From Rhizodiscina lignyota (taxonomy: Eukaryota): a DNA stretch of 64,000 nucleotides. The notes beneath the pieces are model-generated. The model made no database searches and was not told the origin of the DNA. It saw only the letters and a program-made list of their open reading frames with translations. Within the stretch, counting starts at the first letter, position 1. Each line of letters begins with the position of its first letter. Position numbers and translations under genes: made by a program. The DNA lies in assembly GCA_010015805.1 (NCBI GenBank), contig ML978133.1:310001-374000 (forward strand), written 5' to 3'. This document shows, piece after piece, positions 1 through 36,891 of the stretch.

Positions 1-432
1 GTGATATCTCGGCTTCCACATCATCATTATCATCCTCCAAGATCAGATCTCCGTCTTCATCGTATCGAGGTGGGTTGCGGTAGATTATGTTTCGTTCGTA
101 ACCCGCGTGGTTTATCTTCTGAGAGGATTTTAGCGCTAACAACTCAGTAACCATCCTGTCCACATACCCTGGAGTAGACGGATGGACCTGTCCCAATGTT
201 CAAGCGACCCTCCTGAACATAGCGCGCATCATGCCTCAGTTTGTTGCCGCGATTCGTTGGTCGATCGATCGGGTCTTCGCCGTCCGAGTCTGCCAATTTC
301 AGAGTTAGCATTTGCTTCAATTGAAGGGCATGGAACTTGAGGGTAGAGAAATGTCTCACCATCATTCAACCGAGCCAAAGTCCTCTTCATCTCGACAATG
401 GTGTCGACAATTCGCGCTTGTGCTGCTGCCAT
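1..432 (-). CDS. RXT2: Rxt2-like subunit of the Rpd3L histone deacetylase complex; 5' part, spliced, runs off the window start
   Basis: Spliced reading MAAAQARIVDTIVEMKRTLARLND / DSDGEDPIDRPTNRGNKLRHDARYVQEGRL / KINHAGYERNIIYRNPPRYDEDGD matches the fungal RXT2_N pattern (TNRGNKL, HAGYxRxI, NPxRYD). Confidence 0.8.
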
Positions 433-907
433 GTTGGGTGGTGGGATCGGAGAATCTGCGAATGCGAGCTATTGGTTTTGGGTGAGGGACATGAAAAGCA
501 GCGCAATAAGCGCAGTCTCGCGATGATTCAAATGGCTAAGTTCGAAAGTTGCATAAAGAGAAAGTGGGCGCGGTGATGGAGGAGAGATCTAGTCGGTCGC
601 GGAGCTCCACGTTCTTGAATCTGGAATCGCGTTAAGTGCAGGGATATTCGCGGTCCGTGCTCCACTGACGCACCGAAGTCTTGGCAGCCTTTCGGGACTT
701 GCCATATTCACCTTCCCGTGACATCGCGTCTGAAAGTCCAGCGATATAGCATAAAGACCGAGTGAGAGAAACACGAAACTACTGGAGAGGCATCTCTGTG
801 GCTAGCTGCACCCTGCCCGAAGTCCGCGTTTTCGCCGAATGTACCTACTTCAAATTCATCATGCATCGATGACCGGTCTCACCATCTGATACGTCGAAAC
901 CACGGCG

Positions 908-3900
908 ATGGACGCATATCCTGAGGAATATGTCGAGCACAACCTCCCATTCATAGTGTTGTTTGGTCTTGAACAAGAAGATGGGTTCGAGGATGATGCC
1001 TATGAAAGAGCTCTGTTGCGAACTGGTGGCTTTATCGTCAAGTCAGAACTACCTCCTGTTTCGGGAGACCAAGCGCAATCCCTCATTCGAGAGCTTCTGA
1101 AGACCGATGCAACTGGCCAGGCATGGAATGGGAGAAATGGATCGGGCCAGAGCACTAATATAGGATTCAAATTTCATCAAACGGGGAGGGTACGTTGACC
1201 TATGCTGGAAAGACTCCTTTCATTACTCATGCTCTGGACAGAAGTATGTTCTCCCTCCTCGCAAAGCCAACCCGCCTGAAAGTTCCTTTGGAGCCTCATC
1301 ACCTAGAAGTCCCAACTCGTCGCCGCCAGCATTGGTCTTACATTCTCCATTGTCTCCACTTTCTCCAGACTCCCCTATTTTCCCAGATGGGCTGATGTCC
1401 CATCTATGGCTCAAGAAGCACCAGAACTACGTGCCATCAACTTTGGTATCGTTCTTCAACTTCACATCAAACGCAAATCTCAATTCGCTGAACGACAATC
1501 AATTGAAATCGGATATCAACCAGATTAGCAGTGCGCTGCGAAGCTCAGGCTGCAAGACACGGCACGTTGTTGTTTTGGTCAGCGACAAAAGCATCGCAGC
1601 AGCTCCTGATGTTGAGGAACGGCTTGCAGGTGTCAGACGATCGACTGGGTTGGATCCCAAGAATTCATTATTCTTCTTCCCTCCAGCCACGTCCAATGTA
1701 GAAGTTGCAGCCTTTGCAAGTTCGTTGTTGTCCGCGCTCCAACCGTATTGCGTCGAGTATTATCGCGATCTCACCAAGCACTCGCGGCGAAAGAAAGCTC
1801 GCGGAACCATTCCGCCGCCAACCGCTCCACCAACGAAGGGAACGTCTCAATCACTGTCTGCACCGGGTTGGAACGTGCGCTACGAATTCAAGCTCGGTGT
1901 ATTTGCCGAATTTCGCCAGGAGATGGACGCTGCAGGCAGACACTACAACTTCGCGCTTGACGCGCTGCTGAGTGCTGATGGGATGTTTGAGACTACTGCC
2001 AGTTGGTCGCCCAGGTGGGACGAAATGCGACTGCTCGCGGATGCGACTTGCATTAGACTGATTCGGTCCTTATTATGGAACACTATGACAACGCAGGCCG
2101 TACAAACTTGGATACGATACCGTGACCGAATTAGAGAGATTGTTGACAAAAGGGGCAAGGGATCTTCGAACTATGGCTGGGAGGCGTGGGAGTCGCGTTG
2201 GGCCAGAACTATGGCCGAGCTCATTCAAAGAGCGGATCTGCTGGTATTTTCTGTGCCGTCTTCCTCCATGGAGTCTGAGACGTTATTGGAGAGGATCATC
2301 AATTATTTTGCGCCTCCTGAGAAAGCAATACCACTCGGTGAGAGGCTTCCGCCATGGCATCTGCTGCACCACGCTGGCTACTGGATGGCGCTCGCTGCGA
2401 ATCATGCCGAGCGGAGACGAGACCTGGCTGAAAATCTAGCTGAAGAGGATAGAACGCCACCAGGGCAATCACCCGCAGCTCTTGTTGCCAGCCGCCACAA
2501 TACGTACGACACTTATTTGTGTCCGGATCCCCACGAGGAGTTCCCATTTCCCAACCAGAAGGGCTTTGACCACTGCTTTGACATCGTTGAGAAACTTGAT
2601 CATTCTACAAACGAGTTTGCGATCAGGCGCCAGCAACGATTCGTGGATCAGCTGAAGCTTCGCCAAAGCAAAGAATTAATGCGCAACAATCAATTTTCGG
2701 AGGCTTTGAATATTCTAGAACCTCTATGGAGGGGAATGATGTGGCGGATAGAAAAGTGGTGGAGCCTCGCCTATGAAATAGCACTTGCGCTGCATGAGAC
2801 GGCGAAACGTCTCGATCATCGTGAACTGGCTGTGGGGACGAGTTGGGAGCTACTCAATGAAGGTATGATGAGAGTTCGAGATGTCTGATGTTTGTGCTCA
2901 CTGTGGGCGTAGTATTTCCCCCTCCACCTGAGAGCGCTCGTGATCTCTCACTCTGCTTGAGTGGTGGGCATGCGGATTCTCCATCCAAATCAAATTCCAC
3001 TCTTCATTTAAAGGAGAGTGAGATCATTTCTTTCCGTAAGGATGAATCGCATGCCATGTGGAGCATACACTGACGGTACACAGTTTCCGTCGGCTTCAAT
3101 TTTGCATCTGCAGAAGCCCACGTTGCAGATCATCTGGAATGTCAACTATCCTTGACTTCTCGAGCTCACCAGGGAACTGCGCCAATAACATTCTCTAGCG
3201 TCTCAATAAATCTCGACGGTCCAATTGAGCAAATCAACTTACATCACTCCGCCGCCGAGGCTAAGGCATCATCCTGCGTCGTCCAAGTAGATCTTCGTGA
3301 AGAACATACTTCCGGAACCAGAGGCCGTGTCAGTGGCTCTGCTGATCTGACAATGTATCCAGGCCACACGAAAGCCTTTACTTTAAGCGTTGTTTTTAGG
3401 GAATCCGGTGATGTAGCGGCGCGCCTCTCAACGTTGACAATTAACACCGGTAACTTCAACCTCACTTTTGAGGCAGATGTCCAAGCAAAGGAAGGTGTCG
3501 CGGCTTGGTGGCAAGACCGCCCGGCAGGCCTCAGACCGAAGCGGATATTGAGACAAGACCCGCATACGATCAAGATCCTACCCAAACCTCCCAAAATGGA
3601 GATTGCTATCATAGATCCAAAACAAGTCTACTTTACTGATGAAGTGGCGATATTCAAAATAGAACTAGCCAATATGGAGGAGGAGGAGACCGAAACAACC
3701 TTGGAGGTCAGGTTCCTCGACCGAGCAACAGGCCATCTGGATTTTACTTGGGGCCCGGAGCCTCACATCAAATCAGCTCAGGTCGGACCTGATGGACTTC
3801 CAATGTCTCCTACTGGCCTTCCTGGCCACCACATAGGAGATCTTGCTGCTGGAGAGCAACGAGTCGACACTGTCTCAATGAAGGCGCCTTCGATCCCAAC

Positions 3901-4828
3901 GGAATGCATACTGGAGATAAAGGCACTCTATCACTTGAAATCCGATCTCGAAACCCCAATTTCGAAGATATTCTCCGCAGACATCAACTTCCTTTCGCCA
4001 TTTGAAGCCAATTACGATCTTACCCCACAGGTCCATCCCGATCAATGGCCGAGTTACTTCTTAGTTGATGAGATGGAAGGCCGAGATTTTGATGATAATG
4101 ATGCAGCCGACCACGCGTGCGGCCTGTCGCAGAGATGGTGCTTAACAGCCCGTGTGGCATCGTTCGCCGAGGAGCCTCTCATCATCCAAGACGCCGACGT
4201 ATTTTTGCACTCTCCTCACGGAAGCATAAAGTGTGACATCACGAAGTACCGACATCAGGCCGAATCGAGTAACGAGATAGCGCCGCAGGAAATGCATGAG
4301 CGCAAATTCACCATGGATATTCAGAAGATTAGCTTGGAGGACCGGCGCTCTTCAGCTCTTGAAATGAGCCTTCAGATATCGTGGCGGCGTGCGAGTGCCG
4401 CACATGCGCAAGACAAGCTCATCACAAGCACTCTTGCAGTCCCGCGACTTGTCATTCCGAACAGCGAGCCGCGTGTCCTGTTCTCAGCTCGAGCGTCGCC
4501 AGTAGTTCCGAGCCTCATGCTTCTGGACTATACGCTGGAGAATCCGACGAATCATTTTCTCACATTCGACCTGACAATGGAGGCAAATGAAGAGTTTGCA
4601 CTCAGCGGACCGAAGCTGAAAAGCTGCAACATTCTACCCATGAGCAGGCAGGTTGTGTCCTTCAACGTGCTGCCACTGGTCAAAGGACAGTGGATCACCC
4701 CTCAGTTGAGAGTTGTAGATCGGTACTTCAACAAGACTTTGAAGGTGCTTGGGACCGAAGGAATGAAGGTTGATAAGAAGGGAATTAGCCTGTGGATTGA
4801 TGCCGAAGATGGAGATGATGAGACATAG
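908..4828 (+). CDS. TRAPPC11: TRAPP complex subunit 11 (foie gras / gryzun-domain protein), multi-exon
   Basis: ORFs 908-1198, 1332-2888, 2888-3073 and 3152-4828 join via GT-AG introns. Motifs MDAYPEEYVEHNLP, YYRDLTKHSRRKK, GWNVRYEFKLGVFAEFRQEMDAA and C-terminal LDYTLENPT..LTFDLTME are typical of fungal TRAPPC11. Confidence 0.88.
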
Positions 4829-5032
4829 TGGAATTGCTTCAGGAAGGAGAGATACGATCAATGTTAGAGAATCATTCATGGGTCCTGCATCCAAAAGCCA
4901 AATGATGCAAGGCCATTCCACAGGGTTCGCTTTCTGCATGTGATTGCCCTACTCGCCTGCCATCTCCTTCTAGTACCTGAACGATATGGCACATACACCT
5001 GACCTGTAGCGCGATTTGGATGTTTGCTGAAA

Positions 5033-5298
5033 CTCTTTAAGCAGCGCATTGCAACTTCACCGAATTTACATATATACAGCAACGAGTGGGATAAGAGCAA
5101 GCATGAGCTCGTAACCTTCCCTAATTTGTCTCGGAACTTTAAATCTGCAAAGGCTGCAGGAATTCCTGCAGCCTTGCTGAACTTGCAGCTGTCAGGATCT
5201 CTCGCTAGACGAGTCATGTTCAGATGCACTCACATTAAACTTTGTGACAAGCTCCTTCTATTGAGATGCGTTTGAAGACATGCAATGCCTTTAAAGCT
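5033..5298. repeat. Degenerate long inverted repeat centred on a perfect 26-bp palindrome (5150-5175)
   Basis: AAGGCTGCAGGAATTCCTGCAGCCTT is self-complementary. Outer blocks pair roughly symmetrically: gcatgagctcgt (~5101) with acgagtcatgt (~5208), and ctttaa..gcattgca..cttca (~5035-5059) with tgaag..tgcaatgc..tttaaag (~5273-5297). Confidence 0.55.
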
Positions 5299-7957
5299 GC
5301 CCTGATGATATTGCAGACGCGCGGAAGGGAATCAACTACGACCAGAGTCGTTTGTATCGAGATCTTCATGACCTGATGAGCATAATTGGTCAGGTTCCTG
5401 CTCTTACGCCGGAATCACAGACGGAAGCATCGAAGCGTCGAATTCACCGTAGGCGAGCGTTCTAGCGCGTCAATGGCACGTGGGTGAATGAGTCTTGTCT
5501 TCAGAGTGAAACAGAGACTCAGTGCAGCAATGAGATCGTCCGAAGTAGCGAAATGAGGTGCAGGATGTGCTATTGTGTATCTTCATTGGAGAGTCTAGGA
5601 ATTGCCACTTTCGCGACTCATATTAAGCATTGCTCCAGTTGATAGCGACGTCTCTGCTTCCTTCAAGACGAGTGGTCCCTTTCCCAACCTCCAGCTCGAA
5701 ACTGACACGAGTGACGATGGTGGGTGAACCCTTAACCCACGCGGCACCTTAGGGCCTGAGAGTCGAGACAAGCTGGAACTCGGAAAGGAGGTTTTCAGCG
5801 GGTGTGGCTCATGCCTTGCTGCTTCCGATTGGCTGCGGGTAATGAAACATCTCCTTTTCGGCTTTCTCTTCCGCGTCAAGCAGATCAAGCATCTGGCTCT
5901 GCCGTCGTCCATTCCATCCATGGCAGCTCGCTCCGCATTGCGACATGTTCGAAAGTCAGACCAGAGCACGGTGTAGGATATGTATGGCCACTTCGCGGCA
6001 CCTACGCATCTCTCTTGTCCTCTAGCTTTCTCTATAGTCGACCCTCCCGGCCTGTGGGACCTGCGGTTGGTCTCCGGTGGGAGTTCGTCACAGACATGGG
6101 TGGTTCTCCTTCTGGCACCTGTCACAGTGAGGTGGATTGCTAATGCGCGTTCCTGGAGGTGCGAGCTGCAGCTCTTTTTGGCAATGGTGAGCTCGAGGGC
6201 GCGTAGTGAAGAAGATCCTGGCGCTCAATCTGCGGGTCGCGTCGATCGCCTATCTGGTTGTTCTACGGCTGAATTTATTGTCTATTGTCAATCTGGACCT
6301 GAAGAAGCTCTCCGTGTAGCGATGCATGTTGGCAGCCTCGGCCCTCACGTTTCTTGGTACCGAGCGGGCAACGGCTTGGGGCACTTCACGATTTATGGCT
6401 TCGCCTTTCGCCGGACCTTAGAGCGGCGCGAGAAGGCAATTTAACAACCTTACTCCCACGTGTGAATGGGGCTATCAGTTCTCCATCAGTCCCAAGCGTT
6501 TAGTGCCGTTCTTCGTCAGTGATCGTGAAACATAGCGCCGTTGCCGGCGAAGGCGACATAGCAACGAAAGAACGTTCGCAGTCCATGGGATGTATGTTCT
6601 GAAGAGACTTTTTGCCTCAAGCGGACGTGTCTCGACTTGCTTCGGGTCAGTGTGTCGTTCCTCCGGACGATTATACTTTCGCAATGGCTGACGACGACAA
6701 TACTGGGCCATTTAGAAACGACCAGCCCAGAGTATCGCTCAGAAGAGTCTCAAGGCTTGCGGCTTGCGGCTAGCAACCAGATGGTGCCGAATCTGGGTCC
6801 GAGGAGGCAAGAAATTCTACGGGAAGGGAAGGAGGGCGCCGTCCATTTTGTATCATTGGTTGTCTTCGGGCGACGGCAGAATTCCAAGATTAGCATCGGT
6901 GGCTTGCTGAAGAAAGAAAACCTCCGCATGCCCTATCGCTGTCTGGATTGCCAAAAGTGAGATGCAGCGCAGTAATGGTGCGTGGTGGAGATGATGTGTT
7001 AAATGCAAGCTGCAGGAATCGGGGTATATGGGAGCGCGACGAGTGGGCGGCGGCATAGAAAGGAGAGCGCTCGCCCAGTCCCTGGGTCGAAGATGGGTGT
7101 ACACGTATGCTATCATGCTCTGTAGGTAAGTAGCTGTACTACGTGAGCGAGTGTAACGATCTCGCTGCCGTGCGCGCAGAGTCTCGAGCACGGCAGCAGC
7201 CACTGCCTTATCTTGCACGACGGGTGAAGCGCATCTCGAACATCGCGCGGAGGCCTCAGGTTGACTCTTTTTTTCGGCGCTCACGGTCCCCTGTCTGGCA
7301 TCCCTCGCCCTGCATGTGGGTTGACGAGGGCTTGGGGGGAGCCTGTGCAGTGGGAGAGCCCCTGAATGGCAAAGTCAGTCTAAAAGCACGAGGCCCGCCA
7401 AACCGCGCCGCGCTGTGCAGTGAGTGGCTGATCCTGCCGGCCACTCAGTTCTTCTAAAGGAGGCCTCCCGATACTACTACTCTGACACGCCTTTTCCTGC
7501 TCGCACCTCTGCCCACGCGTTGCCGGGCATCCCTGAGTTGCAGAGGCAGCACATCCATCACTGCAAAATTCCTCTTTTAATCCCGCCAACTCCCCGTTTC
7601 GACGCGCGCTGACACCGCACAACACTGTCCCCTCGAAATCAACAAACATCGCTGCCTCGAGCAACCGCGGCAGCGTCGCGTCCGTATCTCGCGCAACTCA
7701 CCTCCAACGACCTCTCTGAATGAACCTCCAATCACACCCGCCCTCTCCAACCCACATTCCCCGAACAAGCCGCACCCACATCTGAGACCGCCCGGACCCC
7801 CGGATTGAGCGAAACGTACGTCGCACATTGTCCGCAAGGGCGCCGGAAGGCCGAAGTCCCAGCAGATCGGGAGTAGACGGTTGCACAGCAGCTTCTGTCT
7901 ATCCGATCTCTTATCACGTCCGCATTGTCGGACGTTGAGTGAAGAGGGGAGCGAAAA

Positions 7958-22903: not shown

Positions 22904-24513
22904 TTATGGCAACGATACTGTTTTTCTCAAGGCAGGACCAGGCTTTTCCATGTTCGGGGACACACTCCTTGCAATCGGATTGTTCAATGCGGCTGCTACT
23001 GTAGGTGCAGCGCCCCATTCGCTATCCAGAATTCTTCGTACATCAATTTGGATTAGCAATCCCACTGCCAATGGACCCACTATCGTATTCAACACGATGG
23101 CCCAAATGGCTGTAATGAATGCTTCTGTGGAGAGATAGCTTGTCTGGTTGTATCCAATTTGTATGATGAGTAGACCGATCTCGCCGCGCGCAACCATCGC
23201 CAGACCGACCAACATGGTTGGAGAGATAACACGCTTCAGAAATGGAGTCGGCCCCAAATCTTGCTTGCTCTTTCGGCTGGATCCAATGCCGTATCTGGCG
23301 GACAGAGTCCAGAGAGGAATATACAAGCCAACGATGAGCTTCGCCAGCATCATCACAATAGCGAAGGCTACGCCTCTCCAGATTGCTTCGCCTGTCCACA
23401 TGTCCAAAAACGGCACTGCAAAGCCAATGCTGGCAAAGAAAAGAGGTTGCAATACGTACTGTTGCACGCTGGCCAAGAATTGATCGAAAACCTTGGTGAA
23501 AGGTGAGACTTCGGAATCGTTGCAAGGTCCAGTCGTAGCCGTTAAATAGACTTGATTCGCCGGAGGACTTGGCAGGTAGGCTAAGAGCATCCCAGCTAGA
23601 AAAGCCCCGTACAGTACTGAACTTCCAGAATATGCGGAGATAGCCAGGAAAGCGCACAGCACACATGCCATGAACATCAGACTAAAAGCGCGTCCCAACT
23701 TGAAGAGGCGAGGTTCAAGAAAGTGACGAAATGCCGGCGTTAACAAATACTTGGCGAGCAATGGAGTAACGATACTCATCGCGAAGGATGCGACAATGGG
23801 CCGTCCGATGAGCCATCCGAGATTGATATTTGCGCCTCCCGAGAGTGCTCCCAGGTTCTGAATTACACTCGCCATGACCAAGCCAGCCACATCGTCAATG
23901 ACAGCGGCGCTGAGAATGACCGTGCCTGCCTTCGTCTGGGTCATGCTTACTCTGCCGGCAGCATCCTTCAGGACCACAAGTGTAGTCCCCAGAGATGTGC
24001 AGGAGAGTGCCGCTCCAACGATAAAAGCCTCGAGTGCGCCGTAGCCATATGAAACATAGAGGATTAAGAATGATAGGGCAATGGGCATAGCTGACCCTGT
24101 TGTTGCTACTATCAGGCTCAAAAATAAATTTTGTTTCAAGAGATCGAGTCGTGCTGTAAGGCCACCTACGAAGATGTTAGGTATCTTGGGTATATTCCGT
24201 GAACGTATATTACCTTCGAAGACGATGACGATTAATCCAACATAGCCCAAGGCTACGAACGTCTCTTGCCATTCAACATGTAAGATATTGCTGAGTGGCC
24301 TGCCGTATATTATTCCCACGAACATCTGCCCGATAAGGCCGGCGCGGAAGACCTTGTTCGCCGCCCATTCTGAAATCGAAAGGGCAAGAAAGAATGATAT
24401 CAGGACAAGGATTTGGATTACTACTAATTATCAGACCTAAACTTAGCATCGAAGAAAGCGGGCTTCTTACTGTCTGGCTCCTCGTATGGTAGAAATCGGT
24501 TCGTATCAGTCAT
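22904..24513 (-). CDS. CPA2-family cation/H+ antiporter (Na_H_Exchanger), spliced
   Basis: Start MTDTNRFLPYEEP, many TM segments, and motifs GAALSCTSLGTT, SAAVIDDVAGL, PLFFASIGF and GLAMVARGEIG. Confidence 0.88.
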
Positions 24514-24946
24514 TCTCACAGAAATCTACGGAAGTAGAGATTGCTTCAACAAGCCTTGAAGACGCCATCAAACAGGTTTCAGTTTTCTACTGCGAGATCC
24601 TTGGAGTTAATTATCTGTGAGACAAAGATTGACTCCAATTAGATCGTATTGGCTGATTTCGAGGGAAGAGGCTAATAGGTCGAGATCGCAAGATGTCGAC
24701 AGACGGCACGAGGGTTGATAAATCTTCCGCTGGGCGGGCACTAGGGCAAGCCCACTTTAGGGGGCTTTCCCCACTTAACTTAGGGACCAGCCACCTAGAA
24801 TTCTGCAGAGGGCTCCCAAACGTGCTACGTCTGCATTGGAGAGCCACGAGTGACAATCATTCGTTCCACCAAACCCAAATGTACTAAGCATCAGAATGGA
24901 TTGGCTCTAATCTGTGGAGTATTAATTTATGTGTTACATAAAGCTG

Positions 24947-25984
24947 CTACTCTACTAATCCGTCATCAATCTCCTGAAAGATGGCCAGACCTATTCTACC
25001 CAGCGCCGTTCCAACTGCAACGGCAGAAGCACCAACGGATCGCATACGCTTGTACCCTTCTGCATCACTCACGCCACCCACGCCTATGATCTGGATATGC
25101 TGAAGCTCAGGGCGGGCTTTGATAAACTCTGAGAGAACCCGAACATTCCCTAAAGCGAGCGGATGAAGAGGAGCTCCCGCCATTCCTCCTATGCCGGCTC
25201 CAGTGCTTGAGTTAATGGTGGGCGTAAATGCGTCCTCATCGGCATCAATTGGCGAAAGAATCAGAGATGAGCCTAGTGTGTTTGTAGCCGTAATGAAAGA
25301 GACCTTGCAATTGCTCGCGCAGGTCGACAATGCATCGACGAGTGCCTTGAACTGATCTGAATACGTGTACGGCGGGACCTTGAGACCGATTGGGATCATG
25401 GGGTACTCAAGGACTTCAAGATACTCGATCAGACGCTCCCCCGAGTACGCTGGCGGAGGCTTGTCGGCTATGTTTGGGCATGAGAGATTTATCTCCATCA
25501 AGAGAGGGATGTCAACCTCTTCCTGTGTCGTGGCAATTGCATCGTGACATCGCCGGATCTCTAGAGGGCTGCCCGTGACTGATATGATGATCGGCTTGAT
25601 GTTTTTTGGCTTTGGAGAGAGGCCCTTGAGTACATCGGACAATTTTGCGACTATTTCCAAATACTCCGAGAGCAGCAGTGGTGAATAACCCAGTGTATTA
25701 AGGCTTCCGGTCTGCGTCGGATTGGCTTTGCCGAAAGCTGGTGTCGACGAATGCGACTGCGGATCGAAGAATGTGTATTGATGTATGGAATCATCGTGAG
25801 CAAAGCCGTCTATTAACGCAGTCCTTGTAGTTACCGCTCCGGTATATGGACAAGAATATAAAGCTTCGAGATCAGTAAAGTCTGTGGCCCAAGGATTCGA
25901 GCTGTTCAACAGTGGTGGTTCAATCTCAATGTGATCCTGCCGGCTGCTCTCTCCTGACGCCCACAGGGCATGTGGGACGCGCAT
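24947..25984 (-). CDS. Class 1A dihydroorotate dehydrogenase-like FMN oxidoreductase (possibly dihydrouracil oxidase)
   Basis: Intronless 345-aa ORF with LNSSNPWAT, GAVTTRT, LNTLGYS, EINLSCPN, ITATNTLG, GGMAGAPLHPLALGNV and IIGVGGVSD. Confidence 0.85.
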   Translation of the reverse strand: MRVPHALWASGESSRQDHIEIEPPLLNSSNPWATDFTDLEALYSCPYTGAVTTRTALIDGFAHDDSIHQYTFFDPQSHSSTPAFGKANPTQTGSLNTLGYSPLLLSEYLEIVAKLSDVLKGLSPKPKNIKPIIISVTGSPLEIRRCHDAIATTQEEVDIPLLMEINLSCPNIADKPPPAYSGERLIEYLEVLEYPMIPIGLKVPPYTYSDQFKALVDALSTCASNCKVSFITATNTLGSSLILSPIDADEDAFTPTINSSTGAGIGGMAGAPLHPLALGNVRVLSEFIKARPELQHIQIIGVGGVSDAEGYKRMRSVGASAVAVGTALGRIGLAIFQEIDDGLVE

Positions 25985-26468: not shown

Positions 26469-27475
26469 CTAATCTTCTCTGCCTGGACGTAGAGGGTCGT
26501 CCACTCGAGTAAAAGAAGGAAACTCTGATAAAAGATGCCCAGTGGCCCATTCCTTGATTGCGTCGAAGTCGCGGCATGTGTGAGGTACTTTGGGGTGGTT
26601 CGCATATCTTGGTGGGTCCAGTATGAGTTCCCATCGCCAGTAATGGGTGCTTATATCACTGTGACAGGTAACCAATTGCCGAAGAGAGTCGATACAGTGC
26701 TCTAAAAACATATCAGTGATCTCCCACTTCCTATGTATTCGAGATATCTCAGTAAACGTACCAACATGATGCATAGTTATATTCCTGTACTGATAACCAT
26801 CCCACAGTTGTCCATGATATCGCTCCGGATAGATAGTTCTGCGAATAATATTCAAGCAATGTAGCTGATGGAAAACATCAAGCATAGTGATATAACTGCC
26901 TTCATCTCCAGGCACAGGAGACGTGTAGTTCACTAGCTTCGCAGCTGATTCTTGCGGTATCTTGATGATCGTAGCTAATATGCTTGTTAGGAATGATGTC
27001 TGGAAGCCGACACCTTACCTGATAACTTACATTTGTATAGATTTTCCCAATTCCGATCGACTTCGTCATTGGGCATACCACCTTCCTCGGGAGGCATATA
27101 CTTCGTTTGAGGATCCAACTCTCCAGAGAACATCATGGTTTTATACGAAACGAGATGATTCGCAGGAGCTGAATTACAGTCAGTCAGTATCATGTGTTAT
27201 GATCCAGAGATCAACTCATCGGAAGAGAACTTACAATACAATGCCAAAGTCGGATCAGATTGATGCACTGGCTTGTATAGTATTATGATCAAAAAGAGAA
27301 AAAGATTCGAAATTGAAAGAATGACTAGTCTGTAATCCGGAAACTGCTGCAAGAACCTTTGACGTAGGGTATTTGCATGGCCTTCTTTATGCCATCTCGG
27401 CTCGTTTGGTTCGAGAGTACAGGTGTCTTTCTCAAGGAAGGGAAGTGTCTCTGCCGTTTGATTGGTATCATCCAT
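26469..27475 (-). CDS. UstYa-like DUF3328 oxidase (4 exons)
   Basis: N-terminal TM anchor (LVILSISNLFLFLIIILY), then SPANHLVSY, EVDRNWENLY, paired motifs VFHQLHCLN and HHV|EHCIDSLRQLVTCHSD, and HTCRDFDAIKEWA. Introns about 27169-27234, 26975-27030 and 26702-26761. Confidence 0.92.
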
Positions 27476-27656
27476 CGTAGGAATACTTTGATACCTCAGG
27501 CACTGGGTCGATTAGTCAATAAAAAGATTGGATATAAGGTGACACTTATATATCCAATTTTCTTTAGTGAGCGGGTATAGAGAAGCGGTTAAAATGGATG
27601 TATCACGAAAGACTAATGCAATCAGCCTCCCATTCTTTCACCGCGTTAGAAATTTC

Positions 27657-28003
27657 ATGTCTTTCTGTATAGAGTATCATGCCTAAAACAGGGGACAAGA
27701 ACGATAGATCTCGCTACCGTGGTTTGCTAGCTCTTTCGCTGCCTAGTGGGGGGGGGGGGCTGGCTTAGCGCTCGTACCTACAAAACTATATACCCATCTG
27801 TTGTTGTGAGTGAGTGCACAGTTTACTTTAGAATCCTAGCGGTGGCTTTTAACTCCTGGGCCCTACTAGCTTCAGCGAAAGAGCGAGAAACCCACGGTAG
27901 ACTTCTGTGTAGCTCGCTTACGGTTATTCTACAGCGCTAAAAATACTATGTCTTGCTGTTTAGAGTATCATACCTACAAGAGGAACGATAGATCTCGCTA
28001 GAC
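27657..28003 (+). repeat. Local direct duplication; the first copy is interrupted by the MITE
   Basis: atgtctttctgtatagagtatcatgcct...aacgatagatctcgcTA[MITE]TAgac (from 27657) vs atgtcttgctgtttagagtatcatacct...aacgatagatctcgcTAgac (27948-28003). Confidence 0.8.
27717..27897. mobile_element. Small TA-flanked MITE (181 bp)
   Basis: Left end ccgtggtttgctagctctttcgctgcctagtggg pairs with right end ccctactagcttcagcgaaagagcgagaaacccacgg. TA at 27715-16 and 27898-99. Confidence 0.78.
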
Positions 28004-28149
28004 CTGTATCTAGTTTCACATCGCTTCCGGCCGTAAATCAGTTGCGGCACTGTCGTCTTAATATTAGATAGATATAAGAGGTATTTGAAAGTACCTGGAA
28101 TTCTCTTTCCAACTTCGTCTCAAACCATAAACTAGACTCATCTTTCAAC

Positions 28150-28359
28150 ATGAAGTTTTCTATCGTTCTGCTTTCTATCTTTGCAGCTGGATCAATGGCA
28201 TCCCCTGTTGCGCAGACCACTAGTCTAGCAGCCTCGCCCACAGCTACTGTCGGACCCAAAACCCCACAGGATGAGGCAGTTATCAAAGCTCTCGTCGAAA
28301 ATAAGATCCTCCCAGATTACTACGACGGCCCTTATGGAATGGGAATCATCAAAGTCTAA
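28150..28359 (+). CDS. Small secreted peptide, candidate RiPP precursor (69 aa)
   Basis: Good start context (caacATG), TATAAG at ~28073, signal peptide MKFSIVLLSIFAAGSMA-SP, Tyr-rich C-terminus ILPDYYDGPYGMGIIKV, and a canonical intron just after the stop (GTATGT 28363, CTAAC 28396, CAG 28410). Confidence 0.78.
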   Translation: MKFSIVLLSIFAAGSMASPVAQTTSLAASPTATVGPKTPQDEAVIKALVENKILPDYYDGPYGMGIIKV

Positions 28360-28456
28360 TTTGTATGTTACGAAGGATCCTGTGATATTAAAAATCTAAC
28401 ATTGGATCAGGTGTTTTCAACAGCCCCGAAAGGCTGGGATCCCGGAGTCGGATGTT

Positions 28457-28547
28457 GATAGTTGAGGTGGTAGTTGAGGTGGATAGTTGAGGCGGATAGT
28501 TGAGGCGGATAGTTGAGGTGGAAAGTTGAGGTGGATAGTTGAGGTGG
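28457..28547 (+). repeat. 13-bp minisatellite (GATAGTTGAGGYG), about 7 copies
   Basis: Directly visible tandem units with minor variants. Confidence 0.9.
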
Positions 28548-29143
28548 TTCGTCTTGTCTGTACCTAATAGGCTATAACGTCACAATGAGTCACCCCTTTG
28601 TATAAAGGGGTCATAGTCTATCGTATAGTTGAGCAGAAATCACTCCTTCAGGACACTAGCTGCAACAAGACCTACCGCAGTGTGTTGATTGAGACTGTCC
28701 CACCACTATGCGATCACCCGCCACCATGCAATCGTCCATCATTATGTGATAGCATACGCTATCCTATGTATCCAGGCTCAGCATCTCCAGTAGATTGGAT
28801 GAAGCATTCCAATCAACGAGTATTGGTCAAGCCGTCGATCGTTTCTCGTGCACCATTGATCGCAGCTTTAGTTGCTCCTTGCTCAATCGCGACTGTGGGA
28901 GTCTCTTCGAAGTTCGAAGTGCTAGGGAGAATCCGCAGGAGAATTATATGGTTCCAAGCTTTGAAGACAGTCTACTTTCGGAACATGTATAGCAACAATC
29001 TTTGCTGGGTGGAGGAAAGAGGCGTCGATGGCTTTTCAGACTGCATCGATGTCCATATATCCACACTAAGCGTTGAAGGTGAGAACTAGCCCTGTTCCCT
29101 CACTGCCCGGTGGCCCAGCACAACTTTATATTGCCACTAAAAG

Positions 29144-30639
29144 CTAAGTAGTTGTAGACATTTTGCCACCCACGGTCTCGTTTGCGAAATATAGCCAGCT
29201 CCAGTGCTCTTCGGGGCTGTCCCACAGGCTCTGCATCGTCATAACATCCTCATCTTTCGGTCCCGCCAACAGTATCGCCAACTCTATGCTTAGCGCTGCG
29301 TACATTTTCGTCTTCTCTTTTTGGCCTATGAAGCTACACTCTAGCGCTGCATGTAGGTATGCGTTGGCGAGGATGTTTTCTAGGCCCTCCTGCTTTACCA
29401 GTGAAATGAGTAGCTCTGCATCATCAATAGTCGCTGTACGATTGACAGACTGGTCAGAGAGCCTGTCAAAAAGGTCACTAATGACCACGAGGCGAGAATC
29501 GGAGATGTCGGTATAGAAACGGGGCTGGTTGCATCGTGGACAGGTACAATTGAAGCCACAGTTGCTGTAAAGAAAATCTAAACGCTTCTGCCGAACCAGC
29601 AGAGGGTTTATGTCTAGTAGCGACGTGGTTAGCATTAGTGTCCTACAAGTCATGTGCATACTACGCCAGTCATACATTGCATGTAGAACTCTTCGTTAGG
29701 GTCGATATCTCTGATTGCGTGGAAGTGCTGCGTCCAGGTGTCGGGATCTAGAAAGGAAACTACACTTTATACACTTTAGCGAATTTCGAAATGCACGAGT
29801 CTATGCACCTACTTCGGCCTGCACGCATGATTCAGTCGCTGTATCTGGTGATTAGTGTATAGCAAGCATCTTGAGCGGGTACAGCTCACCGCGGTCTCTG
29901 GGACGACGATCAAGTAATCTTTTCCGTCGCTACTAAGCTCCGTCCTGAAGGCGTTGGTAGCGATGATATCGTTTACCAAATCTCCACCAAATTGGCCATG
30001 CAGAGCTAGATAGGCCTCTCTCGTCTTCTGGGGAAGCCTCGCAACACCACGCTTCTGTAAGAACTCCCGGTCGCTATTCGGCATGGCCTTGTATATCTTC
30101 GTATTGATGACCAGTACGGGAGTATGGGAAAAGATTCTATCCCCACGATATATTCTAGTGTTTGCAATTAGACCAATACCTCGTCCTGGCCGCGCGCGAG
30201 CTTCGTAGATAAAGGGCGGTTCCGTGTTTGCTCCCCGGAGAGCCTCTTTATTCGTAAAAGCTGCCATCTCTTCAATTGACTTTGCGGCGGTTGGAGTGGT
30301 AATAACTGATACACCGCGGCTGTCCGCAAAAGTGAGACTCGTGTAGAGGCAAAACGGTTCGATATCATTACTGCTCTCTACGCAGTCCGGTTTATACGAC
30401 CATGGGGGCGTGATTTCAAGCTCCTGCACCACGCGGTGATGTCGATGGGTAGACTCGATCCGAAGTGTCGTTGGAAGATCAAGACCAGGCTGTTCGCGCC
30501 AATCGCAAATCGGGCTAAATCCGAGAAATTCAGAAAGCAACGAAATAGAACAACTGCCAACGCCCAGCTGCATAATCTCAGGGGCAGAGGCTTGGGAGAG
30601 GGACGCAATTACCAAGAAAAGAAAGAGCGGCATATTCAT
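29144..30639 (-). CDS. SET-domain methyltransferase with an N-terminal signal peptide (4 exons)
   Basis: Hydrophobic leader MNMPLFLFLVIASLSQAS, SET motifs PGRGIGLIA, RLNHACRPN and HAIRDIDPNEE, post-SET GFNCTCPRC, and a helical C-terminus ending PEEHWSW. The second intron needs an AAG acceptor to stay in frame. Confidence 0.85.
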
Positions 30640-31283
30640 CGTCAATGTCCAGGCGTTCAGATGGCGAAGAGACTAGAGTTCCAGTTCCACCGCACAGCGG
30701 GATGTTTAATGTATGCGTTGGAGTTCAGCTACCAGCTTCCGAGCCAGATGCACGCCTACGCGATGTTTGGGAGCCCAGAAGCGAACGGATAAATAGGCGA
30801 CTTTTCGTCCACTCGGCACAATGGGAGGCCGTAAGGATTGAATCAAGTCAACCGCTTCTCCTGGATACAAGAACATCGTACAAGAAAAGCCAATGGAAGT
30901 TTGTGAGACATGTGGGTCAGCTTACGAAGGGGCTAGTGTCCACGGCTGGATTTAGTTAGTGTATGCCAAAGGAGCCGCATACACTAAATTTTTGCGGCAA
31001 AACGCCGGCCTCTTGCATTTACTCCCTGGATAATGGCCCCTTCGTACTGTAATATCCCGTACTGCTAGCACTTAGGCTTCGTATTTGCTATTGATATGTT
31101 AGAACCATGCTAGCTCCATCGTGCAGACGTGCTTGCAAATTACGATTGGAGAATGGGAATATCAACCCTTGTATGATAGGCTGGTATAAGAAATGTTGTT
31201 GTCCACCGGATATGCAGGACACTTACACGCTTTGAGGCAGCATAGCTTGCAGACTTTCAATATCTTGCCTTACCGACGTCAAC

Positions 31284-33441
31284 ATGCTGTGGTATTTTCT
31301 CTTTATTGCGAGCTCAGCACTTACTACTGTCTTAGCAGCCCCAGCCAGCCATGTGCTCCACGAGAAACGGGATTCTAGGAGGCAGCTCCCTCGGCGACGT
31401 GTGGAACCCGATGCCTGGATTCCCATTCGAGTGGCGCTTAGGCAGAGCAACCTGGATGCCGGCCACGAGCGTTTGATGCAAGTGTCACACCCCCGCTCAC
31501 CAGACTATGGCAAGCATCTGTCTCGAGAAGATGTGCACAACCTTTTTGCTCCAGTCGAGGAGAGCATCAAGGCTGTCAAAGATTGGTTACTCAAATCAGG
31601 TATCAAGACCGGGTCGGTTGTCGACTACGCGAATAAGGGATGGCTCGCCGTGGACATGCCGGCTCGACAGGCGGAACTTCTTTTCCATACCCAGTATTAT
31701 GAGTATTACCATACCGACGGCGCACGGATCGGCTGCGACAGCTACTACCTACCGAGCGAAGTTGCCGGACATGTAGACTTCGTCAAGCCGGGGGTTAAGC
31801 TTTCAGGAACCCTCAAGAAGCGACAAGTGGAGAGGAGAGATATTCTCTCAAGACCTGTTGGCCCGTGGGAAAAACCACACCACATTCATCCTCGACATGA
31901 TCCGGCCTACTCAATGTTTCCAGGAGCCCATGCGCTCGCTCCAGACCTGCAAAACTGTGGAGTCAACATAACCCCAACTTGTATCAAAGCTCTTTATGGC
32001 ATTCCACCAGCAAGTCATAGTGATCCTGTAAACGCCATGGGACTTTTCGAGCATTTCGACGCATTCGCACAGGAGGACATCGATCTTTTTTTCAAAACTT
32101 TCGCCCCCAATGTCCCACAAGGAACTTCACCAACCGTACTCTCTGTCGATGGCGGCACAGCACCAGTAGCTCCAAGTGATTTGCGCAATGGGGCAGAGTC
32201 AGACAGCGACCTCGACATATCTTATGCACTAATTTACCCCCAAAATGTCACTGTTTACGAGATTGACGATCTACCCAACTCTTCGGGTGAAACAAACAAG
32301 ACTGGGTTTCTCAACACATGGCTTGATTCAATCGATGGGAGCTATTGCAGCTATTCCGCTTTCGGAATCACTGGAAATACTCCAAGTATCGATCCCACGT
32401 ATCCGGATCCGCTTCCTGGTGGCTTTAATGGGAGTCTAGAGTGTGGTGTGTACGAGCTTACTCGTGTTGTGAGCATTTCGTACGAGGAAGCTGAAATTGA
32501 CCTTCCAAAACGTTATGTAGAACGCCAATGCAACGAGTTTATGAAGCTCGGTCTGCAAGGACATTCTATCGTCGTGCCCACTGGGGATTACGGTGTTGCC
32601 ATTTTCCCTGGTGCGAACGGGAACGAGTTTGGATGTCTCTCTGGCTTCGGACAGAACGGAACCATTTACAACCCGAACAATCCTTGCGGCTGTCCATACG
32701 TTACGGCGGTCGGTGGAACGCGTTTATATCCTAACCAGACCGTCATTGATAGAGAGAGTGCGATGCAGGTCAATATCCAAGCTCTTCATCCAAGCCTACC
32801 ACCGGCCTTCGCCCTCTCCTCCTCTGGCGGAGGCTTCTCCAATTATTTCACCCAGCCTTCATACCAGAGAGCTGCAGTCCAAGGCTATCTTTCGAACCAT
32901 AACACTCTACCATACTACCTTGCTAATGAGGCTGCAACAAACATTGGAGCAAACGGTGGTGTATATAATCGTGCTGGGAGAGCATATCCTGACGTTTCCG
33001 CGAATGCGGCCAACTTGCTGGTCTTCAGTGATCTTACGGTATTTCCTAACTTCGGGACAAGCTCGGCATCTCCCATATTTGGGTCTGTCTTGACGCTTCT
33101 AAACGAAGAACGAACAGCAGTTGGCAAAGGCCCCATTGGCTTTGTGAACCCGGTATTGTACGAGTGTAAGTGGTACAAGTGGCTGCAAGCTTCTCAATAT
33201 CGGGGCGTATTGCTAAAGGTTTCCATAGACCCGGAAGTACTTAACGATATTACGAATGGCTCAAATCCAAATTGTGGTAAGTCTCCTTGCGCAATTGCAA
33301 AATGATCAAAGAGTTCGAGAAGTTGACCGAATATGCTTAGGCTCCTCAGGCTTTCAAGCGGCCAAGGGTTGGGATCCTGTCACAGGTTTAGGTACTCCAA
33401 ATTTCCCGAAAATGCTTGAGCTGTTTCTGGCTCTGCCATAG
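31284..33441 (+). CDS. Secreted S53 sedolisin / tripeptidyl-peptidase (aorsin-like), 2 introns near the 3' end
   Basis: Signal peptide, Pro-kumamolisin prodomain (VSHPRSPDYGKHLS), ITPTCIKALY, ESDSD, GDYG, SGGGFSNYF, GRAYPDVSA, GTSSASP, DITNGSN and GWDPVTGLGTP. Confidence 0.93.
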
Positions 33442-34135: not shown

Positions 34136-35240
34136 TCATGAGGCCTCACAATTGCCAATGAAGAACGCAATGCTGGGCGTGAAATTGACAGTCATCTCAA
34201 GATCCGTCTCCTCTGTGTCGTCCGCGAAGACCCTAACGCGCTTCACCTCTTTACAGCCCAACCGCGATTTATGATTGAGCAGCAACCAGGCAACGCCTTC
34301 GCCATTTGGAGTACCCAATAAAGCTTTGGCCGACTCGTCCTCGATTGGGCTATCTTTAGCTTCGTTGAAGTATCCATACTGGTTGCCAGATTCCTCGACT
34401 ACCCTGCGGGCAGCTGCGAGCGTTATCTTGTCCGTGATACCACAGCGGACGATGAGGTTGATGTTTGTAATGTGGTCTTGAGCTAGTCTTTGCCATTCGA
34501 GGAAGACAATGTCTGACCAGTAACGCAGAGCAGGGACGTGATACTTCCCGGCCTGGTAGCCCTCTTTGTCCGCTTTGAGGAACGCCCCCTGTGGGCTGAG
34601 ATTCCGCAAAGCAAATATGGCACCATCGAGAGGGTCGTAGAGTTGGGTGAAATGCGGCATTTCAGATTGTTCGGGCTTCTAAAAAGAGTCAGTGAGTAGT
34701 TGTGGACGGGAGTACACGAACCCGCCTCTCCGCTTTTGGCAAGTTGTGTTGAGAATCCCCCCAAGCCGAATGAATTTGTCTCATATCGTTCAAACCCTTA
34801 AAACTTAAGGTGTGATAGAGGGTGCTAAACTGGTGCTTGAAAATCCGACCGTATCCCGTCTCACTCGTTTTCCAATCATTCTGCTCGAGACTCTCGTAGT
34901 TCGTCCACTTGCTCTCAGAACCCTCATGCTTGCCATTGTTTATTTCGGAAAGAATGTGAGTTGCGGCGTTGGCATCTTTGGCGCGCATCGCATCACCCAG
35001 TATTCCACCTTTGCAAATCAGCCTCTGCCAGGTGCTGTCATCGGCCGGTCCAATGTGCTCGAGGGATATTTGTCTGGTGCCACGAATCACATAGCGCCCC
35101 AAAGACTCGGTGACGCTTGAAGAGAGCGGGGGAGGAAGAGAAACGGATTGAACATGACGATTTCTTGCTGCGTCGGAAATGGCTCCCTGAAAGAGCGACA
35201 AGACATAGACAAAGGCGAGATTGAGAATCATACGATGCAT
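34136..35240 (-). CDS. Secreted protein of unknown function, tandem paralog 1
   Basis: Signal-like MILNLAFVYVLSLFQGAIS, WQRLICKG, one phase-0 intron (~34679-34722), PALRYWSDIVFLEW and ALLGTPNGEGVAWLLLNHKSRLGCKEV. Confidence 0.75.
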
Positions 35241-35688
35241 GGCCGGAGCGGTAGACTGACCAAGATTATTGAAGCTGCTGAGGACTGAGGCAGAACATAC
35301 GCTTAAAAGGATTACTGCAAACTGCAATGACGGCGTTCGAGGCATCACTCTACGTAAGTACCGGCTTCGTTGATCCCGCGGCGATTATGCGGATACGTGA
35401 CCAAGAAGCCTGTGATAATGCGTAAATGCCGCGAAAACAATACCTTTCCTCAAGGCATACTAGGTCACATTTCACTAGATATTGGGCTTAGCTGATTAAC
35501 ATTAAGCTTGAGGCGAGTCGAAATAAAGGAAGAACGCAGACAAGGCAAAGAGCATTAGTAGATAAGTATGAACCATTGCTCCGTGATAGCCAATTCAACC
35601 ATTTCCCGATGTACGAAGTAGAGATATCCCGAATGCGACACCACTCTCCACATTAGACTCGCATACCAAATTCCTCCAAGCTACTACC

Positions 35689-36891
35689 TTAACAATCATC
35701 GATGTAGAAAGCATACGAGACTGGTGAGACTACGTCGTGGGTCTTCCAGTCCACCAGATCTTGAGGTGAATCCATCAGAAAAATCTTGATATGGGTAACC
35801 TCTTTGCGACCCAGCTGGGCCTTGTGCTCTATCAAAAATAAGGAAACACCCGTTCCAATGGGTGTTCCCAGCAGTGCTTTGCCGGCTTCTGAAGAAGCGA
35901 TAATCTTGTCCATCTCTTGGAAACCTTTAAATTGCCAAGCTCCTCGCTCTAATGCCCTCTCGGCGACTTCCAAGGTAAGTTCACCCTCGTCGGTTCTAAG
36001 GTCTGACCCTCGAATAATAAGATTGATATCTTTCACTTTGTCCTTGGCGAAACGTTCCCAGCTTAGAAACGTAACGTCGGCCCATTGGCTAAGGGATGGA
36101 ATGGAATTAATTGGAAGGATGCCCTTGGCCTCCAGCTGATCGAACACATATCGAGGACTTGTGGATGACAGCTCGAGAATGGCACCGGCTTGTATACTGT
36201 ACGCTGCAGCATAAGAAGCTGAGACAACCTAGAGAGTCATTAGTCTATTTTAAGCAAGACTTTATTGAGTGCTTACAGGATTATCGGCAAGCTCTTGAAG
36301 CTCCGCGTCCCAATACCACGCATAAATCTGAGTCTTCGAGCCCATGAAGTTGAGATCATCCATAGCGCTACCGTAGAATTTGTCCAGAAATGTCCAGCCT
36401 GTTCCAAAGCTTTCGTGCAGCACCCAGTCGTTATCCGCAAGATCGTCGAAGAACATCCAAAGGCTTTGGAATTCGGTTTTATATTCATCACGCATCTGTT
36501 CGAGAATTTGACCACCTCGACATTCATAGACCTGCCACTCGCTTTCAAAGGCCATGCCTTGCGGAAGGCCATCACTAAGCAACTTTTCCCAGGTCTCTTT
36601 CCAGCTCTTCGAGTTGAAGAGGGATTCGGAATCGGGGTAGACTTTCCGTTTCGAGTTTGGCCTATGTATGGTATTGACTTCGATGTCCGAACGACCACGG
36701 AGTCCATCGGGACGTTTGTGAGGAGGGCTCAGCGTAGTATGCGTAAAAACAAAGGAGATCGTCCAAACAAGAAGTACGCATATATACGCCTTCGTCGTGT
36801 CGATGCGAAGCGGTTGATGAACAAAGGCGAGAAAGGTGATCACGCAGTTGGTACATGTGCGTTCTGGACTGCTGAAAAGAAAGTGGAACAT
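35689..36891 (-). CDS. Secreted protein of unknown function, tandem paralog 2 (start uncertain)
   Basis: WQVYECRGG, phase-0 intron (~36229-36276), PSLSQWADVTFLSW and ALLGTPIGTGVSLFLIEHKAQLGRKEV. Confidence 0.7.

Follow-up and report, generated by a model that had tools for sequence, protein, structure and literature searches.

The DNA analysed here, referred to as the window, is a stretch of 64,000 nucleotides (nt) of contig ML978133.1 of the Dothideomycete Rhizodiscina lignyota. Its positions 26469–33441 contain four reading frames arranged in two divergent pairs, with shared intergenic regions of 674 nt and 644 nt; they encode a UstYa/DUF3328 oxidase, a small peptide, a SET-domain methyltransferase and an S53 protease (sedolisin). 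This locus is considered as a candidate for the production of a peptide made on ribosomes and modified after translation (RiPP). An initial annotation of the window had placed the four frames at these positions, and open reading frame (ORF) and splice models confirmed both the positions and the divergent orientation, as follows.

26469–27475, minus strand: UstYa/DUF3328 oxidase gene (Pfam PF11807 and splice model)
27476–28149: intergenic stretch shared by the divergent DUF3328 gene and peptide ORF; it holds a dispersed-repeat element
28150–28359, plus strand: ORF of 69 amino acids (aa), candidate precursor (ORF call, codon usage, Tyr cluster)
29144–30639, minus strand: signal-peptide SET methyltransferase gene (contains the annotated protein P0001; Pfam SET)
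30640–31283: intergenic stretch shared by the divergent SET and S53 genes (from the gene coordinates)
31284–33441, plus strand: S53 sedolisin gene, tripeptidyl-peptidase-like (Pro-kuma_activ and TPP1 matches)

The DUF3328, SET and S53 frames are real genes. All four products begin with a signal peptide or a membrane anchor, as judged by eye, in agreement with the secretory targeting that had been proposed for them. As had also been stated, no gene for a non-ribosomal peptide synthetase or a polyketide synthase was detected among the 47 long ORFs scanned in the window, all of which belong to housekeeping or unrelated families.

The DUF3328 gene was modelled with four exons on the minus strand (27475–27235, 27168–27031, 26974–26762 and 26701–26469), which encode a product of 274 aa. 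The ORF of the last exon matches the Pfam family UstYa (PF11807) with an E-value of 1.1e-21 and 78.2 bits (cut-off 25). The motifs HQLHC (residue 162) and HVEHC (residue 196) are both present when a 60-nt in-frame intron is spliced out, and the His and Cys columns of these motifs are conserved in 64–67 of the 67 family members aligned. Reading through this intron (26761–26702) gave a Phe at a position that is His in 64 of 67 relatives; this model was ruled out by alignment with the annotated protein P0019 (KAF2094773.1), which skips the intron, as do its homologues. KAF2094773.1 is itself a partial model of 171 aa, devoid of the first (anchor) exon and of the C-terminal 27 residues. In the complete product, a hydrophobic stretch at about residues 48–67 was taken by eye as the N-terminal anchor. 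Among the best 120 of 159 matches, the closest named relatives are proteins of Thozetella sp. PMI_491 (KAH8897713.1, 65%) and Lojkania enalia (KAF2261377.1, 51%), the others being at 45% or less. The matches include four DUF3328 proteins of R. lignyota (P0019, P0038 and P0126 among them, with the window copy counted once), which correspond to at least three distinct genes.

The 69-aa ORF starts with a canonical signal peptide (judged by eye; it passes a crude hydrophobicity rule) and a small-residue cleavage motif, followed by 52 residues. Its tail is Tyr-rich and contains N-K-I-L-P-D-Y-Y-D-G-P-Y. By the same crude rule, the window has 0.25 small ORFs per kb that start like a signal peptide, hence the bare existence of this ORF is not significant. 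Its codon usage scores −3.97 log-likelihood per codon, within the −3.93 to −4.09 of the window's long exons; by this measure the ORF is the top of its six frames and ranks fourth out of 195 small ORFs. Three Tyr within six residues (DYYDGPY) are expected with a probability of about 0.011 in random 52-mers of window composition, a value calculated post hoc. The codon usage and the Tyr cluster of the 69-aa ORF thus exceed chance. The ORF product has no Pfam match, and its best score in the ESM Atlas (0.80, to bacterial lipoprotein clusters) reflects signal-peptide features only. A spliced alternative to its C-terminus was considered and the 69-aa reading was kept, as the sole donor before the stop codon (GTCTAA) is poor.

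Several features surround this ORF. A textbook fungal intron signal of 48 nt (GTATGT ... CTAAC ... CAG, 28363–28410) starts 3 nt after its stop codon and may be an intron of the 3′ untranslated region. About 100 nt downstream of the ORF, at 28457–28547, lies a 13-nt tandem repeat, GATAGTTGAGGTG, in 7.1 copies. On the other side, towards the DUF3328 gene, direct repeats (27633–27716 and 27924–28000) flank inverted arms (27714–27741 and 27873–27900). Genomic assembly contigs (run X1) break at 27796–27858, and a 284-kb contig matches the broken piece, which is therefore repeated elsewhere in the genome. The element at 27633–28000 may be an insertion similar to a miniature inverted-repeat transposable element.

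The SET gene has four exons on the minus strand (30639–29890, 29838–29813, 29764–29676 and 29613–29144) and encodes 444 aa when read from an upstream ATG. The annotated R. lignyota SET domain-containing protein P0001 (422 aa), which matches Pfam SET (PF00856) with 38.3 bits (cut-off 22.4), lies letter for letter within this model. The upstream ATG provides the protein with a signal-peptide-like N-terminus; the public annotation begins at an internal Met, which hides this part. An acceptor site 6 nt further upstream was ruled out by comparison with P0001 and its homologues. The protein is composed of a SMYD-like SET domain, a post-SET Cys motif and a helical C-terminal domain, and matches to SMYD2 and SMYD3 (E about 1e-6) align its NHxCxPN, Tyr-bearing and post-SET Cys motifs. 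Judged by these motifs, it is a putative SET-domain protein lysine methyltransferase of the SMYD-like type.

The closest named relatives of this protein are from Trichodelitschia (45%) and Aulographum (38%). A profile search of 1.84 billion representatives gave 22,066 matches with an E-value of up to 0.001, of which 768 were at 1e-30 or below. Twenty representatives that were looked up are spread across Dothideo-, Sordario-, Leotio- and Eurotiomycetes; none of these 20 is an Epichloe or GigC-named protein. The family includes Pyricularia oryzae MGG_08614 and members in Venturia inaequalis, Ustilaginoidea virens and Botrytis hyacinthi. A crude hydropathy test detected a hydrophobic N-terminus in 75 of 107 full-length representatives, most others looking similar by eye, and the window protein passes this test when read from the upstream ATG. 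A secretory SET enzyme is therefore a trait of the family and not a peculiarity of this locus. Family members (including P0139–P0281) have about 400–480 aa and N-terminal signal peptides and are found across Pezizomycotina. A literature search for a secretory SET family returned nothing relevant.

The sedolisin gene has three exons on the plus strand (31284–33165, 33229–33276 and 33341–33441), the last two placed from splice consensus, and encodes 676 aa with a signal peptide and a pro-domain. The protein matches Pro-kuma_activ at 1.3e-37 and human TPP1 (PDB 3ee6) at 2.4e-37, with the serine motif GTS(S/A)xxP aligned; the Glu/Asp motif was noted by eye only.

Structure prediction was applied to the SET protein together with the mature 52-mer. 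The predicted complex scored 0.50, compared with 0.01 for the best control, and prediction runs agreed in at least 28% of contacts, with a predicted local distance difference test value (pLDDT) of at least 41 for the partner. In the calibration of this procedure, on a set that covers no peptides, 51 of 78 solved complexes passed the mark, as did 2 of 108 mismatched pairs; at scores of 0.60 or less, it was reached by only 5 of the 78 solved complexes, and all 4 passing mismatches (of 180) fell in this range. The model therefore weakly supports a pairing of the SET protein with the peptide.

The roles of these four products have a precedent. The report on the Epichloe festucae gig cluster (PMC10540207) describes a 7.7-kb locus composed of gigA (precursor), gigB (DUF3328), gigC (SET) and kexB (S8 protease), in which each gene was tested by gene disruption and metabolite analysis; gigB was required for cyclisation and gigC for lysine N-methylation. 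Since this epichloecyclin cluster is already characterised, the novelty suggested by the initial annotation, which was aware of no characterised cluster with these genes, had to be abandoned. By analogy, the R. lignyota locus is a candidate DUF3328-type RiPP locus, with a gene composition that mirrors that of the gig cluster. In the pathway that we propose, the product of the 69-aa ORF would enter the endoplasmic reticulum, where its signal peptide would be removed. The membrane-anchored UstYa/DUF3328 protein, its catalytic domain facing the lumen, would then oxidatively cross-link the Tyr-rich C-terminal D-Y-Y-D-G-P-Y, by a chemistry akin to that of AprY on FYYTGY and of GigB on the INFKIPYT Tyr. 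A lysine in the peptide may be N-methylated by the signal-peptide SET enzyme, in the manner of GigC, and since the peptide contains no Kex2 site, release or trimming of the product may fall to the sedolisin.

In support of a shared pathway, four gig-like roles, with intact catalytic motifs and secretory targeting, lie within 7 kb, and the 69-aa ORF is gene-like in its codon usage, ends in a Tyr-rich tail of the kind that DUF3328 enzymes cross-link and has weak support from complex prediction. We estimate the probability of the complete four-gene pathway at about 0.2–0.25. That at least the DUF3328 protein and the 69-aa peptide form an enzyme–substrate pair is an even bet. Participation of the SET enzyme in the pathway falls somewhat short of this and is proposed tentatively. 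In its most specific form, a single-core, Kex2-free DUF3328 RiPP in which a lone UstYa protein would cross-link Tyr, a lumenal SET enzyme would methylate lysine and a dedicated sedolisin would excise a secreted 52-mer, the proposal is unlikely.

The conserved linkage in other genomes that the initial annotation had called for was not observed, as far as it could be tested. A profile of five full-length SET relatives provided 66 metagenome loci (567,769 nt, many with 10-kb flanks). None of the 66 contains a DUF3328 gene detectable by tblastn with the spliced window protein, and a hidden Markov model (HMM) built from the window protein and 66 full-length relatives, which recovers the window copy at 3.4e-53, had no match at E ≤ 1 among the 11,760 ORFs of these loci. 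Across the SET family as a whole, DUF3328–SET linkage is thus not a conserved feature. Unrelated genes lie beside SET relatives, with Ybp2, a GT28-type glycosyltransferase, MFS transporters, Vps23 and DUF4360 recurring and GH3 also present, and signal-peptide-like small ORFs are not enriched near them: in 23 of the 66 loci, picked for long flanks and with some near-duplicates left in, 21 such ORFs were counted in 106,379 nt near the SET relatives (0.20 per kb) compared with 53 in 237,709 nt far from them (0.22 per kb). Two other species, Lojkania enalia and Microthyrium microscopicum, have matches to both proteins; in each, the DUF3328 and SET proteins listed belong to contigs that differ in length. 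The closest named relatives of the two window proteins belong to different species. Sedolisins are ordinary secreted proteases. We found no literature that links a sedolisin or tripeptidyl-peptidase to UstYa/DUF3328. Within the locus, the repeat element separates the DUF3328 gene from the 69-aa ORF, and the two divergent regions have in common a single 11-mer, a result reached by 14 of 200 shuffles and hence not significant as a common promoter motif. The 69-aa ORF contains neither dibasic KR or RR (Kex2) sites nor internal repeats; it has no homologue by tblastn in the 66 loci and none in the ESM Atlas, and its exact sequence is absent from a collection of 15 billion proteins, so it is probably unannotated. 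In the literature consulted, Kex2-type sites or repeated cores are described for the precursors of ustiloxin, asperipin-2a and epichloecyclin and for those of the dikaritin class in general. Lastly, the species reported to have GigB orthologues (Epichloe, Ophiocordyceps, A. versicolor and A. bombycis) do not appear among the best 120 of the 159 DUF3328 matches. All these observations weigh against the four-gene pathway.

Alternatively, the four frames may be chance neighbours with no common pathway, namely an orphan UstYa oxidase, a SET enzyme acting on other substrates, a nutritional sedolisin and an ORF that is unrelated or not a gene. In favour of this, the SET family is large, taxonomically spread and embedded among unrelated genes, signal-peptide-like small ORFs are common in the window, and DUF3328 is multi-copy in R. 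lignyota. To the absence of DUF3328 from the 66 SET loci and the separation of the closest relatives by species or contig is added the lack of a homologue, a dibasic site or a repeat in the 69-aa ORF. A mere coincidence must nevertheless account for the presence within 7 kb of the same four roles as in the gig cluster, whose genes were knocked out in that study. By our rough estimate from assumed copy numbers, chance would place a DUF3328 gene beside a SET gene in just some 2% of genomes. Coincidence also leaves aside the unusual codon usage and the Tyr cluster of the 69-aa ORF, and the weak support from a SET–peptide score of 0.50 against 0.01 for the best control. We consider chance neighbourhood a serious possibility, below even odds.

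A narrower association may be envisaged, in which the SET enzyme and the sedolisin act jointly on proteins or peptides that are secreted, the 69-aa product perhaps among them, and the DUF3328 enzyme serves an unrelated substrate. The two genes have a common 644-nt divergent promoter, the SET–peptide prediction gives weak support here as well, and one of the 66 loci (L008) has an S53 gene beside a SET relative. In this locus (2–5754), a GH3 glycosidase gene, the signal-peptide SET relative and the S53 gene lie side by side, intron-free and GC-rich, without DUF3328, the SET relative and the S53 gene being placed tail to tail, 77 nt apart. However, we estimate that one in 66 is near chance level for a multi-copy protease family; the orientation is convergent in L008 and divergent in the window, and the S53 proteins of the two loci are only 28% identical. 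To our knowledge, there is no biochemical precedent for a SET–sedolisin pair, and we regard this association as quite unlikely. In conclusion, the gene content, topology and secretory targeting given in the initial annotation are correct and its RiPP interpretation is reasonable; its novelty did not stand, and conserved linkage was not observed as far as it could be tested.

The four frames form an island, within 7 kb, amid housekeeping genes: the rest of the window encodes mostly TRAPP subunits, a kinesin, PRMT5, a DEAH helicase, UBA2, UMP1 and others. Directly next to the DUF3328 gene (22904–25984, minus strand) are genes for a Na+/H+ exchanger and for a member of the dihydroorotate dehydrogenase family, the ORF of the latter beginning about 480 nt past the DUF3328 stop codon. 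On the other side are two tandem paralogues on the minus strand (34136–34660 and 35689–36228), which are 37% identical over 166 residues (E 1e-32) and have neither a Pfam family nor an atlas match; no usable ESM Atlas match was found for the 174-aa neighbour. Between the paralogues, an ORF at 34689–35345 has a signal-peptide-like start.

In the literature consulted, the precursors of characterised fungal DUF3328 RiPPs have Kex2-cleaved, usually repeated cores, on which the rules of genome mining lean. If the pathway that we propose is true, these rules would be broadened by a precursor with one core and no Kex2 sites that a sedolisin releases, and some of the many 'orphan' DUF3328 genes would be explained. 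By extension, the signal-peptide SET family (768 representatives) would be composed of secretory-pathway lysine methyltransferases of peptides or proteins, with GigC as the sole characterised example. A defined peptide substrate would provide this apparently unstudied family, outside Epichloe, with a first function that can be tested. Should the genes be merely unrelated neighbours, the finding is ordinary.

Compared with known systems, the window locus most resembles in composition the gig cluster: all four functional roles of gigA, gigB, gigC and kexB are also found in the window, on a similar scale of about 7–8 kb, with a secreted precursor that holds Tyr and Lys and with a serine protease. 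GigB (QPH04226.1) has 281 aa and the window DUF3328 protein 274 aa; GigC (QPH04223.1) has 422 aa and the window SET protein 422 or 444 aa. This comparison of GigB and GigC with the window proteins is based on published descriptions and species lists. The protease of the gig cluster is a kexin-like S8 enzyme, whereas that of the window is an S53 sedolisin, and GigA contains LxKR sites and 27-aa repeats, both of which the window ORF lacks. Judged by the species among the best 120 of 159 matches, the window DUF3328 protein is not a close relative of GigB. Thus, a candidate precursor, a DUF3328 gene, a SET gene and a serine protease gene are co-located within 26469–33441, with a different class of protease, and neither GigB orthology (best 120 of 159 matches) nor conserved microsynteny (66 loci) of the gig type was found. 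In Table 2 of PMC10540207, the epichloecyclin cores have K-I-P-Y in order, an order found again in the window ORF with two one-residue insertions.

Asperipin-2a is made with a single DUF3328 oxidase, which cross-links the core FYYTGY through ethers derived from Tyr (PMC6514808). The D-Y-Y-D-G-P-Y of the window ORF resembles this core. The Tyr-tail resemblances to the asperipin-2a and epichloecyclin cores are leads suggested by short motifs, and not tests. The apr cluster of A. flavus (aprA, aprY encoding DUF3328, aprR and aprT) is minimal, with a reductase and a transporter where the window has a SET protein and a protease. AprA contains many KR-flanked repeats, whereas the window ORF is single-copy and without KR.

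The ustiloxin and phomopsin clusters, as presented in two reports (PMC12048977, PMC10540207), resemble the locus by their UstYa oxidases with two HxxHC motifs, their secretory-pathway precursors and the presence of methyltransferase and peptidase genes. What sets them apart is their class I S-adenosylmethionine (SAM)-dependent methyltransferases, their tyrosinases, the multiple DUF3328 copies and the repeats processed by Kex2, all absent from the locus described here; in particular, the Kex2-flanked repeated cores of dikaritin- and KEP-type precursors are not found in the 69-aa ORF. Known sedolisins such as TPP1 (3ee6), with which the window protease has in common a pro-kumamolisin activation domain and an S53 catalytic domain with its serine motif, are lysosomal or secreted general proteases, unlike the dedicated RiPP protease proposed here. 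For DUF3328 clusters, PMC12048977 discusses both peptidases encoded within the cluster and precursors in which no repeats can be detected. If the R. lignyota pathway is real, what is new compared with the gig cluster would be the replacement of the kexin by a sedolisin, a single-copy precursor without Kex2 sites and a Dothideomycete host.

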